IMG/VR virus record: IMGVR_UViG_2645727810_000007
Direction: 5' to 3' (one strand)
DNA length: 26,847 nt
From: a virus
Lineage: Duplodnaviria; Heunggongvirae; Uroviricota; Caudoviricetes
How positions within the stretch are numbered: position 1 is the first letter of the stretch; each line of letters begins with the position of its first letter. The position numbers and the translations under genes are program-made. Under the pieces are notes generated by a model. That model worked only from the letters and a program-made list of their open reading frames with translations. It did not search any database and was not told the origin of the DNA. Shown in pieces: positions 2,889 through 26,441 of this stretch.

Positions 2889-3577
2889 GTCGGTTTATCC
2901 GTTGCATTGGAATTTATTGTTGCTCCACCACTTTGTACACCTGAAACAGAATGTTTGTGATTGTTATAGTTGTCCCTTAAATTTTTAACAGTAGATGACT
3001 GTGAACTTGCGTTATCCTGAATATCACCGCTAACTTTAAGTAAAGGAGTATTCATGTTGACTCCATCAGGAGCATCAATATTTAACGATGAACATTTAAT
3101 ACTTAGTGGGTTAGGCGTGGTTATGTTTATTGCACCATCAGCAAATTCAATGAATTGAGTAGGTGCAATATTTAATACCCCACCAAGATAAATTGCATCA
3201 GATTTACTGTGTCGCCTTTTGCTTCCAGGTACTGATTCTTTACGATTTTTTCTTACCAGTGATGTGTCTTTGTCGCATATCGCAATCAGACCAATATCAC
3301 CCGCCACAGGGTCCATAATTACAGCGCTGTTTCCTCTCTGCAACCGCCATACGGGAAGATCATATAAAACCGAGTTAGAAATCATTTTTCCTGTACGGTC
3401 TGTTCTGGTTAGTAAAGGAAGAGCGTCAACAACTAAATCCGGTGCTTCCCCCCTGACTTCCTGAACTCTCGCTAACTCAATGAAGAAATATCCAGACATC
3501 AGCATCTCAAAAATATATTCCTGAGATTGTGCCTCACTTACCTGAGCAGGTGTTGGAGTAAATAGTTGCTTATCCAT
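2885..3577 (-). CDS. Baseplate spike/assembly protein (gpV-like by position)
   Basis: ORF track gives 2885..3670, but the first ATG that does not run far into the upstream gene is at 3577..3575 (MDKQLFTP...), overlapping the upstream stop by 8 nt. Function is from gene order. Confidence 0.4.
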   Translation of the reverse strand: MDKQLFTPTPAQVSEAQSQEYIFEMLMSGYFFIELARVQEVRGEAPDLVVDALPLLTRTDRTGKMISNSVLYDLPVWRLQRGNSAVIMDPVAGDIGLIAICDKDTSLVRKNRKESVPGSKRRHSKSDAIYLGGVLNIAPTQFIEFADGAINITTPNPLSIKCSSLNIDAPDGVNMNTPLLKVSGDIQDNASSQSSTVKNLRDNYNNHKHSVSGVQSGGATINSNATDKPT

Positions 3578-24634: not shown

Positions 24635-25107
24635 ACCTCAATCTCTCTGACCGTTCCGCCAGCCTCTTTGAATTTTGCAATCAGGCTGTCAGCCTTATGC
24701 TCGAACTGACCATAACCAGCCCCCGGCAGTGAAGCCCAGATATTGCTGCAACGGTCGATTGCCTGACGGATATCACCGCGATCAATCATCGGCAAAGCGC
24801 CACGCTCTTTAATCTGTTGCAATGCCACAGCGTCCTGGCTTTTCGGAGAGAAGTCTTTCAGGCCAAGCTGCTTACGGTATGCATCCCACCAACGTGAAAG
24901 AAGCTGGTAACGTCCGGCTGCTGTTGATTTGAGTTTGGGGTTTAGCGTGACAAGTTTGCGAGGGTGATCAGAGTAATCAGTGAATAGCTCTCCGCCTACA
25001 ATGACGTCATAACCATGATTTCTGGTTTTCTGTCGTCCGTTATCAGTCCCCTCTGACCACGCCAGCATATCGAGGAACGCCTTACGTTGATTATTGATTT
25101 CCACCAT
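24631..25107 (-). CDS. R: Endolysin (lambda R-type lytic transglycosylase)
   Basis: 158 aa, near-identical to lambda R as recalled ([50 protein letters not shown]...). Confidence 0.95.
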
Positions 25108-25414
25108 CTTCTACTCCGGCTTTTTTAGCAGCGACGCGTTTGATAAGCGAACCAATCGAGTCAGTGCCGATGTAGCCGATGAACACGCTCGTTATATAAG
25201 CGAGATTGCTACTTAGTCCGGCGAAGTCGAGAAGGTCACGAATGAACCAGGCGATAATGGCGCACATCGTTGCGTCGATTACTGTTTTTGTAAACGCACC
25301 GCCATTATATCTGCCGCGAAGGTACGCCATTGCAAACGCAAGGATTGCCCCGATGCCTTGTTCCTTTGCTGCGAGAATAGCGGCTAACAGGTCATGTTTT
25401 TCTGGCATCTTCAT
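25091..25414 (-). CDS. S: Holin/antiholin (lambda S, S107/S105 dual start)
   Basis: 107 aa, near-identical to lambda S ([34 protein letters not shown]...). Met1 at 25414 and Met3 at 25408, preceded by the ccccttattggggg stem-loop at about 25422-25435. Confidence 0.95.
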
Positions 25415-25659
25415 GTCTTACCCCCAATAAGGGGATTTGCTCTATTTAATTAGGAATAAGGTCGATTACTGATAGAACAAATCCAGGCTACTGTGTTTAG
25501 TAATCAGATTTGTTCGTGACCGATATGCACGGGCAAAACGGCAGGAGGTTGTTAGCGCGACCTCCTTCCACCCGCTTTCACGAAGGTCATGTGTAGAAGG
25601 CCGCAGCATAACTATCACTGATGAATTCATGATAGCCAGTGGCTACGGCTCAGTTTGGG

Positions 25660-25710
25660 TTGTGGCGGCCGGAATCGAACCGGCTTCCATCGGTGCGCTG
25701 CCGATTGCAG
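25660..25710 (-). other. tRNA-like fragment (T-arm plus anticodon-arm-like hairpin, no acceptor stem)
   Basis: Minus-sense GCCGG-TTCGATT-CCGGC (plus 25668-25684) is a canonical tRNA T-arm. Preceding it is a 5-bp stem / 7-nt loop ATCGG-CAGCGCA-CCGAT (plus 25689-25705). I could not pair any 7-bp acceptor stem. Confidence 0.3.
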
Positions 25711-25860
25711 TACGCGCGGCGGTCAGCTACATGACTAGTATTTTCACTGTCGCCTATCTGCTAGCTCGCCATTGAGCTTCACCACAACGATGAGAGCACT
25801 GCGCGGCACCTTTCACCAATTCCGCGAGGTCTGCGGGTTCAATGCTCTTACCTGTTGTGC

Positions 25861-25946
25861 AAACAAAAAAAGCCACCGTTGCAACTTAAGAGTCACATAA
25901 CGGCAGCTTATGTGAATAGTGTTGCTCATTTGCTCAATGATGTCAA
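25861..25946 (-). promoter_or_regulatory. Late promoter (PR'-like) and tR'-like terminator immediately downstream of Q
   Basis: Minus strand: TTGACA (25946..25941) 7 nt after the Q stop. About 35-75 nt further on, hairpins (cacataa/ttatgtg 25894-25914; GCUGCCGUU/AACGGUGGC 25872-25907) followed by UUUUUUUGUUU (plus a-run 25861-25871). The -10 element is not clear. Confidence 0.4.
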
Positions 25947-25952
25947 CACGTT

Positions 25953-26441
25953 CTATGCTACATGTTTAATTTTCTCTACACATTTCCGATTTTTAAACGC
26001 ACTATCCAGAACCGGGTGAATCATAAACAACGAGGCATTAAGGATTTCGTCAACTTCCCGTCGACAGGTTGCGAGCGATGGTTTTTGAATGCGCCCGCCG
26101 CCACGGCATAACATCTTGCGAGGTCTTGCGACGCGATGATAGTAAGATGCAATGGCGTGCTTGGAAGAGCCATGAGCGTAGTAGCTGAGGAGGATTCCAA
26201 AGGCTTTCTTGTCAATGTACATGACGGAATCGACGACCTGAGAAATCAACATTCCATCATCATCATTGCACATTGGCCTTGTCATAACTCTTCCCGGCTC
26301 TACGCTCTCCATGAACTTAGCTATTACGCTGCTCATGCGCTTTTCCAGACGACCTGAATAAACCCATGCTCCCCACAGTTCAAGCCATCCATTCAGCCAA
26401 TCGTGCTGCTCTTTGGTGAGGTTTAGTTCTCTTATGCTCAT
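25953..26441 (-). CDS. Q: Late-gene antiterminator Q (non-lambda Q type, 162 aa)
   Basis: Position between ninH/rusA and the lysis cassette. 162 aa with four Cys, followed directly by a promoter-plus-terminator unit. ATGA-coupled to ninH. Family assignment is from memory and synteny. Confidence 0.65.
   Translation of the reverse strand: MSIRELNLTKEQHDWLNGWLELWGAWVYSGRLEKRMSSVIAKFMESVEPGRVMTRPMCNDDDGMLISQVVDSVMYIDKKAFGILLSYYAHGSSKHAIASYYHRVARPRKMLCRGGGRIQKPSLATCRREVDEILNASLFMIHPVLDSAFKNRKCVEKIKHVA

Follow-up and report, generated by a model that had tools for sequence, protein, structure and literature searches.

On the minus strand of the 26,847-nt stretch of viral DNA (Caudoviricetes) analysed here (the window), positions 25656-25790 encode an intact tRNA-mimicking RNA from a phage RNA family that has gone unannotated. 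The RNA folds as a near-complete tRNA, its helices are kept by compensatory change, and it recurs in several phage groups and leader contexts. We think it fairly probable that it is excised from its transcript, dimerises and acts in trans. What had been taken for a scar is thus a well-supported structured RNA family that is missing from Rfam 15, in which no family matches it, and from genome annotation.

Anatomy of the element in the window

A lambdoid late region closes the window on the minus strand, with a Q-type ORF, a tR'-like terminator, a 450-nt leader and the genes S, R and Rz. A reading of the sequence alone had noticed a tRNA-like remnant between the late promoter and the holin gene, and the location stands: the element follows pR'/tR' and precedes the lambda-type S holin gene. 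The features of the locus are as follows.

25953-26441, minus strand: Q-type antiterminator gene, from the ORF list, assigned by its position relative to Q of HK75 and CUS-3
25865-25908, minus strand: tR'-like intrinsic terminator, recognised from sequence as AGCUGCCGUU...AACGGUGGCU plus a U run, after the late promoter
25791-25859, minus strand: slot A, the upstream neighbour of the tRNA-like element, with stem UAAGAGCAUU/AGUGCUCUCA, a 40-nt interior and CACAAC before it
25656-25790, minus strand: complete tRNA-like element, the sole match in the window to covariance model R1 (136 model positions)
25780-25788, minus strand: 5' strand of the acceptor-like stem P1, GUUGUGGUG, pairing with 25659-25667
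25764-25777, minus strand: D arm GCUC-AAUGGC-GAGC with a G18G19-like GG, from the minimum free energy (MFE) fold and ARAGORN
25707-25761, minus strand: long arm of 56 nt at the anticodon position, with no 7-nt anticodon loop
25734-25739, minus strand: hexamer ACUAGU, self-complementary, within the long arm's apical loop; 37 of 37 variants have a palindrome in these columns
25689-25705, minus strand: long variable arm AUCGG-CAGCGCA-CCGAU, placed by ARAGORN as a class II variable arm
25668-25684, minus strand: T arm GCCGG-UUCGAUU-CCGGC, unique in the window
25656-25667, minus strand: 3' strand of P1, CGCCACAAC (25667-25659), plus CCA, the final C of the former being the first C of the latter
25415-25655, minus strand: late leader, 3' portion as far as the S start codon, nearly invariant in an alignment of the window, HK75, CUS-3 and lambda
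25091-25414, minus strand: lambda-type S holin gene, 107 aa, from the ORF list and the Holin/S annotations in HK75, CUS-3 and lambda

A hairpin equal to the tR'-like terminator carries the annotation Tr' in HK75, and the counterpart of 25415-25655 in CUS-3 is annotated 'bsq3 boundary sequence'.

The MFE structure of positions 25650-25800 is a full cloverleaf, with an acceptor stem of 8-9 bp, a D arm with GG, a long variable arm and a canonical T arm. Two of these parts had been seen in the sequence-only reading. The T arm, GCCGG-TTCGATT-CCGGC, is present at 25684-25668 as described, and its motif has no match in 100 shuffles even when 2 mismatches are allowed. The hairpin ATCGG-CAGCGCA-CCGAT is likewise present, at 25705-25689, but it occupies the variable-arm position and is not the anticodon-arm-like element it was taken for. 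The matching acceptor and D stems that were then reported as missing do exist: CGCCACAAC pairs with GUUGUGGUG and the D arm lies at 25777-25764, the 5' acceptor strand and the D arm (25764-25788) falling at or beyond the upstream edge of the range considered in that reading. The junctions are in tRNA register, with 2 nt (AA) between the acceptor stem and the D arm and 0 nt between the T arm and the acceptor stem, and the acceptor-T coaxial helix and D/T elbow expected of substrates of RNase P and tRNA processing are present in the predicted secondary structure. As modelled, the window RNA retains the class II tRNA parts that form the L-shape and elbow.

The anticodon position has no 5-bp stem with a 7-nt loop and no U33; since a 56-nt arm replaces the anticodon arm, the window RNA cannot decode. 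This arm consists of an outer stem GCAG/CUGC, a conserved internal loop AUAG / GCGCGUA and an inner stem of at most 9 bp, which in the window copy has 7 standard pairs below an apical loop of about 19-20 nt. The helix P1 extends beyond the usual acceptor length, reaching 9 bp in the window and about 17 bp in the copies found in N leaders, and because it runs on in this way the RNA is a non-ideal substrate for RNase P.

The window copy scores 156.7 bits against R1 (E 1.2e-34), a value obtained by construction because its sequence is among the 37 used to build the model. Support for the fold independent of R1 comes from the MFE cloverleaf and from an ARAGORN call at 25787-25656 made with relaxed thresholds and introns allowed. 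Taken by itself, the window copy has an ordinary folding z-score (-0.97); an N-leader homologue folds likewise with z = -5.07.

Performance of tRNA and non-coding RNA detectors

The sequence-only reading had allowed that a complete tRNA or a known RNA model might score at this locus, which would make it a real gene. ARAGORN with default settings reports 0 tRNA genes in the window, and Rfam at gathering thresholds gives 0 matches there and none on ten related loci. Because no complete tRNA or known RNA is called while the fold is complete and apparently selected, the element is neither a standard gene nor a remnant. A canonical tRNA (RF00005/ARAGORN) was rejected for want of a call at standard thresholds and for the failed anticodon arm. 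When the interior of the long arm is swapped for an arbitrary 7-nt loop, ARAGORN at defaults calls an 89-nt class II tRNA, and since the program accepts this arm-swapped version, the scaffold is tRNA-like in all arms except the decoding arm.

ARAGORN calls the natural locus only with relaxed thresholds and introns allowed, as a tRNA-Ala(GGC) with a 38-nt intron. The decoding tRNA that this call proposes, with the long arm spliced from the transcript as an intron, is hardly credible: the forced solution puts an A.A mismatch into the anticodon stem and A33 in place of U33, which leaves an unconvincing anticodon loop that is not conserved as such, and the supposed intron is itself a conserved, covarying hairpin. 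The tRNA introns known from bacteria and phages are, moreover, group I introns, far longer than 38-56 nt.

A permissive Rfam scan gave as its best match the tmRNA model RF00023, over the T arm and the 3' acceptor strand, with 20.2 bits (E 3.4e-6) as compared with a gathering score of 47. Given this score and its coverage of the T arm and acceptor only, and with nothing found by ARAGORN in tmRNA mode even at relaxed thresholds, we rejected a tmRNA. A tmRNA-like tag frame in the long arm, noticed by eye only and not kept in the N-leader type, was also dropped. Searching E. coli genomes with BLAST for a parental tRNA returned nothing but copies of the element, with no similarity to any E. coli tRNA, and descent from the 933W tRNAs ileZ, argN or argO was set aside for lack of specific similarity. 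The window type and E. coli tyrU have an AGCAG...CUGC stem and A73 in common, a weak lead that is too slight to claim as kinship.

Conservation and covariation of the fold

Alignment A4 comprises 37 distinct variants, whose pairs were counted against the cloverleaf. Paired cells make up 95.3%, as against 84.1% in shuffles and 26-49% in slid controls, and 18 of 39 pairs show changes on both sides (11.6 in shuffles, 0-5 in slid controls). The covariation score is 0.306, compared with 0.134 for shuffles, none of 500 of which reach the observed value, and 0.01-0.09 for slid controls. These cell counts overstate the number of independent events, because many variants are close relatives.

All helices but the D stem, six of seven, show compensatory change; the D stem varies on one side only. 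Helix 1 (the acceptor stem, P1) is 98.5% paired with compensatory change at 4 of 9 pairs, and the long-arm helices 3 and 4 have such change at 3/4 and 5/9 pairs, so the acceptor stem and the inner long-arm stem covary too. Helix 6, the variable arm, is 100% paired and occurs as AUCGG/CCGAU, AUCAG/CUGAU and AUAGG/CCUAU. The T stem has the versions GCCGG/CCGGC, GCUGG/CCAGC, GAUGG/CCAUC, GCAGG/CCUGC and GGUGG/CCACU, and the stem at the anticodon position has GCAG/CUGC, GGG/CCC, GCGA/UCGC and, in Pantoea phage PdC23, GUGU/ACAC. The D-loop GG and T-loop UUCGA are invariant across the family, as is the D arm, in part because the search patterns required the D arm and T loop. The 3' CCA is not kept in the N-leader or Klebsiella copies.

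The covariance model R1, built from A4, gives its training members 138-160 bits and three copies outside the training set 123.5-149.8 bits; genuine tRNAs score weakly against it (9-25 bits). Identity within the family ranges from 74 to 100% across phages of E. coli, Salmonella, Klebsiella, Pantoea and Superficieibacter, the diverged copies standing at 74-77%, and no copy is disrupted except by single mismatches. Judged from these alignments, the family is maintained by purifying selection and is not decaying. The suggestion of a decayed or truncated tRNA does not survive an element that is complete, with 37 variants paired as described; that of a structured element within the late leader, offered alongside it, was right as far as it went.

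A palindrome in the apical loop

The hexamer in the apical loop is ACUAGU in the window and UCUAGA, UCGCGA or UCCGGA in other variants. Read as pairs, its positions are 100% maintained, with AU in 20 variants and UA in 17 at the outer pair and UA in 25, GC in 10 and CG in 2 at the centre, and the switches amount to three compensatory double changes. An A-rich run lies on its 5' side. No nearby partner with the identical hexamer was found except once, and the variable-arm loop is excluded as the covarying partner because it is invariant. Small alternative hairpins within the apical loop were discarded: they have no register in common between variants, and only the palindrome reading is consistent. 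A heterodimer with the palindrome of a neighbouring CUS-3-type element was rejected as well, since the match is confined to one locus (L132) and absent in other contexts, which makes it a chance match. Selection for a self-complementary loop, to which the variants point, is what one would expect of a loop-loop (kissing) homodimer, whose contact through ACUAGU, 6 bp and AU-rich, would be weak.

Alternatively, the symmetry of the hexamer could be caused by a dimeric DNA-binding protein, which would explain the symmetric change of the palindrome. More broadly, the element could be a DNA-level feature in which the inverted repeats GTTGTGGTG/CACCACAAC serve as recombination or boundary sites and the hexamer as a protein-binding or restriction-type site; many unrelated interiors do occur within the same arms, the CUS-3 depositors annotated 'boundary sequences', and homing-endonuclease genes lie close by in some loci. 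We regard this as improbable. The G.U pairs fit only the strand that is transcribed with N or S, and being wobbles they would turn into A.C mismatches on the opposite strand, or have no meaning in duplex DNA; because they are confined to the sense strand, RNA rather than DNA structure is favoured. Internal helices far from the boundaries covary, and the fold fits tRNA geometry down to its 2-nt and 0-nt junctions.

Distribution and genomic contexts

The sequence of the window element also occurs in HK75 and other phages, and window-type matches are present in 164-175 of 5,426 complete E. coli genomes. Among the E. coli matches listed, just one has an annotated feature beneath it, a 'hypothetical protein' (H87). 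A few phage records name the element 'hypothetical protein', 'polyubiquitin-A' or 58-nt 'tRNA-Ser', the last being a partial annotation by one depositor that covers the 3' 58 nt, and literature searches found no description of the family. A scan of species-representative genomes gave 3 matches in all; one of these, on a Cellvibrionaceae MAG contig, looks like enterobacterial phage contamination.

The copies occupy several contexts. In E. coli prophages and P22-like phages the element sits between nutL and N, 30 nt upstream of the N start codon, where it substitutes only the top of lambda's N-leader hairpin, with flanks identical to lambda. These N-leader homologues, as distinct from the window copy, stand on the same lower helix as the lambda hairpin, between nutL and the N ribosome-binding site. 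The Superficieibacter copy is in an N-like leader, a Klebsiella prophage copy is in a late-type leader ahead of head genes, and Pantoea phage PdC23 carries the element in its late leader.

Salmonella phage records account for 83 of the 92 phage-collection matches, and the two examined closely, vB_CECAV_048 and Skate, are both Skateviruses or Skatevirus-like. Here slot A and the element are encoded on the opposite strand to the genes on either side, in a gap where no ORF exceeds 49 aa. A promoter-like site (TTGACA-17-TAGATT) precedes them and a terminator-like hairpin follows; a plain consensus scan turned up one signal of each kind, roughly as many as in shuffles. From its sequence, the arrangement looks like a stand-alone non-coding transcription unit. 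In loci L132 and L142, 3 nt separate the element from a downstream tRNA-Arg(UCU) and 3 more separate that gene from tRNA-Met(CAU), which bears out the link to tRNA cargo downstream of Q made in the sequence-only reading. The 3' side of the element in these loci must be defined by maturation of the two tRNAs.

The view that the locus is a decayed or truncated tRNA gene, left as a scar of cargo exchange, draws on the failure of any tRNA caller or Rfam model to accept it, on the real tRNAs that Stx phages have at the same place and on the partial 'tRNA-Ser' annotation. It is very improbable, given that all four arms are present, at 74-100% identity and with compensatory change in 6/7 helices, and purifying selection across several phage groups and genomic contexts argues against a scar in particular.

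Exchangeable cassettes in phage leaders

The Q-S comparison that the sequence-only reading had suggested was made with lambda, together with HK75 and CUS-3. Throughout, the flanks are identical and the interiors exchanged. Across 120 viral contigs, the late leader contains two adjacent slots, A and B. The closing stem of slot A, UAAGAGCAUU/AGUGCUCUUA, covaries (for example AAGAGCGUU/AGCGCUCUU) around a swapped interior, of which there are at least six unrelated kinds. In L079 (7185-7231) this interior has a type I hammerhead-like core in which the core nucleotides shown in the alignment are all consensus, with a score of 24.7 bits (E 8e-4) that falls short of the gathering value of 34. The hammerhead-like core belongs to slot A of other phages and not to that of the window; such a putatively self-cleaving core in the neighbouring slot offers a precedent for processing. 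Slot B closes with GUUGUGnUG/CAnCACAAC, in which the n pair is C:G in lambda, G:C in the window and A:U in L049, and contains a 68-nt interior in lambda, the tRNA-like RNA, or a family that CUS-3 exemplifies.

The CACAAC before slot A is able to pair with the GUUGUG of P1. This alternative pairing lengthens stem A to about 18 bp, and it is here that the two predictions part, the MFE structure using P1 and the centroid the extended stem A. One lineage has the compensatory CACAAAA/UUUUGUG at the CACAAC/GUUGUG pairing.

At the N-leader site, at least 12 unrelated structured interiors stand on the lower helix between lambda-identical flanks. One of them (L176) is again tRNA-like, an independent second module that has a canonical D arm. 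In comparison with R1, no kinship with the tRNA-like family is detectable in the slot interiors of CUS-3 type, lambda type or other types. The tops of leader hairpins are hypervariable RNA cassette sites, and the pL-N and pR'-S leaders are linked by a common design in which swappable RNA cassettes sit on conserved processing helices.

This exchangeability suits a purely cis-acting account, in which the element would be a cleavage or insulator signal, interchangeable with the lambda RNase III hairpin or a hammerhead, that cuts the downstream mRNA off from nutL or qut/tR' RNA or fixes the 5' end of that mRNA, the excised RNA being functionless. Exact replacement of the lambda N-leader hairpin top, a swappable late-leader slot, the possible hammerhead-like core next door and the dozen or more unrelated N-leader interiors all fit such a module. 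A cleavage signal, however, needs only the acceptor, T arm and elbow, which leaves the internal loop, the invariant variable-arm loop and the covarying palindrome unexplained, and the Skatevirus cassette lies on the other strand from the gene at each side, in a gap without ORFs longer than 49 aa. We give this account some chance of being right, though a minor one.

Proposed processing and function

We favour instead a model in which the RNA is excised and has a job of its own, because of the tRNA-array context in L132 and L142 and the stand-alone-like unit of Skatevirus. The element belongs to the Q-antiterminated late leader, atop a conserved leader helix. Host enzymes of tRNA maturation probably recognise the folded module, with RNase P acting at the 5' side and trimming at the 3' side, and/or RNase III acts on the flanking leader helices. 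Excision would detach the lysis-gene mRNA from the promoter-proximal part of the leader, in the manner of RNase III in lambda, and release a stable RNA of about 130 nt. Two copies of this RNA could join by their palindromic loops, and it would act in trans on a tRNA-binding factor of host or phage. That the tRNA-shaped body has no anticodon suggests, as its partner, something able to recognise the form of a tRNA.

Processing of such leaders has precedents in lambda. The N leader of this phage has extensive structure, RNase III cleavage in its helix is known from the literature, and N expression is activated by RNase III (PMC5725501; PMC9032294), while N and Nus factors at nutL repress N translation, a repression modulated by RNase III (PMC5725501; PMC9032294; PMC5371410). 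Daniels et al. 1988, a reference of PMC7547250, name RNase III sites in the Q-dependent late transcript of lambda in their title.

A more specific proposal is that the family is a dimerising tRNA decoy set free from the leader, which titrates or inhibits a host factor that targets tRNA, such as Septu or retron-Eco7 PtuAB, and that the hairpin tops of lambdoid leaders, in the N leader and the two late-leader slots, are a hypervariable hotspot of 'RNA accessory cargo'. The immunity nucleases Septu and retron-Eco7 PtuAB cut the variable arm of tRNA-Tyr, and phage tRNAs are documented as supplement or decoy (both PMC13096335). Because nucleases that cut variable arms and decoy phage tRNAs are both documented, this role is a testable speculation, though we hold it to be unlikely. 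Such a decoy would keep the acceptor, elbow and long variable arm of a class II tRNA but not the anticodon, and would not enter translation. The one hint of this role in the sequence is the stem and A73 in common with tyrU. The family is in any event a concrete candidate for RNA-based phage-host conflict or control of RNA processing, and a natural tRNA scaffold with a putatively self-pairing extra arm may be useful in RNA structure and engineering.

Comparison with known systems

The element most resembles class II tRNAs (Tyr, Ser and Leu in bacteria), with which it shares an acceptor stacked on a 5-bp T stem, the UUCGAUU loop, the D-arm GG, a long variable arm and the 2-nt and 0-nt junctions, and in L132 it sits in a tRNA array. 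Unlike them, it has a 56-nt arm instead of a 5-bp anticodon stem, 7-nt loop and U33, its acceptor has 8-9 bp starting with U:A, U8 is replaced by A, and CCA is not conserved. The tRNA-like domain of tmRNA also has an acceptor and T arm with a large insertion between them, whereas the element has a complete D arm and a variable arm, and its score is far under the gathering value of 47.

The RNase III hairpins of the lambda N and late leaders occupy the same genomic positions on the same lower helices, and the GUUGUGnUG/CAnCACAAC stem is common to the late leaders, with a compensatory change in lambda. The lambda hairpin tops, by contrast, are unrelated in sequence and have no tRNA features.

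Kissing-loop dimerisation sites such as the HIV-1 DIS present a 6-nt self-complementary sequence flanked by purines in a 9-nt hairpin loop. The phage element likewise has a 6-nt self-complementary loop sequence with purine flanks, for which compensation is observed; its loop is larger, at about 19-20 nt compared with 9, and its dimer is a prediction.

The nearest functional analogues are T4 species 1 RNA (rnaC) and tRNA-like processing modules such as mascRNA. The former, some 140 nt long, is encoded in the tRNA array of T4 under the annotation 'small, stable RNA', and its 3' domain has an acceptor-like stem, a hairpin at the variable-arm position and a canonical T arm. It differs in scoring 13.9 bits against R1, within the range of ordinary tRNAs, and lacks sequence homology; it has a 5' extension and no long arm at the anticodon position, and the palindromic loop was not seen in it. 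In mascRNA (MALAT1) and viral tRNA-like structures, the host tRNA machinery cleaves a tRNA-shaped module and frees a small tRNA-like RNA. These are eukaryotic or RNA-virus systems unrelated in sequence. Like mascRNA, the phage element is a tRNA-shaped module within a longer transcript; its cleavage is a prediction.

Exchangeable interiors of slot A

Window 25791-25859, minus strand: slot A, the late-leader stem adjoining the tRNA-like element
L079 7185-7231, plus strand: type I hammerhead-like core

Slot A is also found in L003, L006, L007, L011, L079 and other compared phage and prophage loci. When these loci were compared, the stem UAAGAGCAUU/AGUGCUCUUA was found to be kept and covarying, with the L007 version reading AAGAGCGUU/AGCGCUCUU, while its interior differs from phage to phage by swapping, with at least six types. 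Upstream of slot A lies a CACAAC that can pair with the GUUGUG of P1, the acceptor-like stem of the tRNA-like element, so that formation of the acceptor stem rules out the lengthened stem A (about 18 bp) and vice versa; the MFE structure and the centroid choose opposite alternatives.

One slot A interior, some 180 nt long (L079 type; also in L041, L053, L077 and L102), opens with a hammerhead-like core of the form CUGACGAG-stem-CGAAAC-stem-GUC. Judged from its sequence, this would be a candidate self-cleaving ribozyme of the lambdoid late leader, its match to Rfam Hammerhead_1 (24.7 bits, E 8e-4) being below the gathering score of 34.

A second cassette family on P1 and the leader preceding S

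L132 1215-1345, minus strand: CUS-3-type cassette, also in L002 (CUS-3), L018, L025, L049 and L166
Window 25415-25655, minus strand: 240-nt non-coding leader preceding the S start codon

The same P1 stem carries a second cassette family, here termed CUS-3 type (90-210 nt), which starts at its 5' end with AAUGCRCAGGCUGAUGYGY and closes with a 3' hairpin, GYYGGAGUUCAGCACCRRC, directly abutting the P1 3' strand. These cassettes matched neither Rfam nor the covariance model of the tRNA-like element; in L132, one stands in tandem with a tRNA-like element. Although non-coding, the leader preceding S, named boundary sequence bsq3 by the CUS-3 depositors, hardly varies between the window, HK75, CUS-3 and lambda; the 54-aa ORF within it (25466-25630) is probably spurious. 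A late leader nearly identical to that of HK75-type coliphages was also seen on a 9.7-kb contig of a 'Cellvibrionaceae' MAG (L129, JAUVQU010000080.1), probably reflecting contamination or mis-binning.

Inserted genes, tRNA calls and a cassette opposite its flanking genes

L025 and L091, between slots A and B: late-leader insertion with an ORF of about 190 aa
L132 795-951 and L142 6212-6368, minus strand: genuine late-leader tRNA-Arg(UCU) and tRNA-Met(CAU) genes
L144 8704-8774, plus strand: 71-nt 'tRNA-Ser(UGA)' called by ARAGORN
L222 (PQ186186, Salmonella phage vB_CECAV_048) 2300-2760, plus strand: slot A plus tRNA-like cassette

The inserted ORF lies immediately upstream of a CUS-3-type element and, by eye, resembles a free-standing HNH/AP2-type homing endonuclease, a putative assignment; HNH or homing endonuclease genes are annotated near the tRNA-like element in BIS08P22 and PdC23. 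In L132 and L142, the tRNA-like element is followed by the tRNA-Arg and tRNA-Met genes with 3-nt spacers. The L144 call, which falls short of class II tRNA length, is in the immunity region, where it precedes a tRNA-like element of the N-leader type by about 150 nt.

The Salmonella phage cassette lies on the strand opposite to both flanking genes, with its own promoter-like and terminator-like signals, and the depositor annotation covers just its final 58 nt, labelled 'tRNA-Ser'. Other records overlay the tRNA-like element with CDSs named 'hypothetical protein' or 'polyubiquitin-A'.

Structured interiors of the N leader and comparison with T4

L225 (T4) 2909-3047, minus strand: rnaC (species 1 RNA)

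Between AAGCUUUGGGGUGUG and CACACCACCAAAGCU, the lambda-type hairpin of the N leader is topped by at least 12 different structured interiors, 60-220 nt long and unrelated to one another (loci L166, L169-L172, L176-L180, L182, L185, L188-L191, L193-L195, L197, L199, L200, L203, L217 and L219). That of L176, called 'tRNA-Pro(AGG)' by ARAGORN with a mismatched anticodon stem, is an independent tRNA-like module; that of L217 combines a canonical T arm with a GGAAUAGGCGG motif similar to the internal loop of the tRNA-like element family.

No rnaC-like tRNA signal was seen in T4 rnaD. The fold of T4 rnaC has a z of -4.57, and its 3' 100 nt include an acceptor-like stem, a canonical T arm and, where a tRNA has its variable arm, a hairpin.
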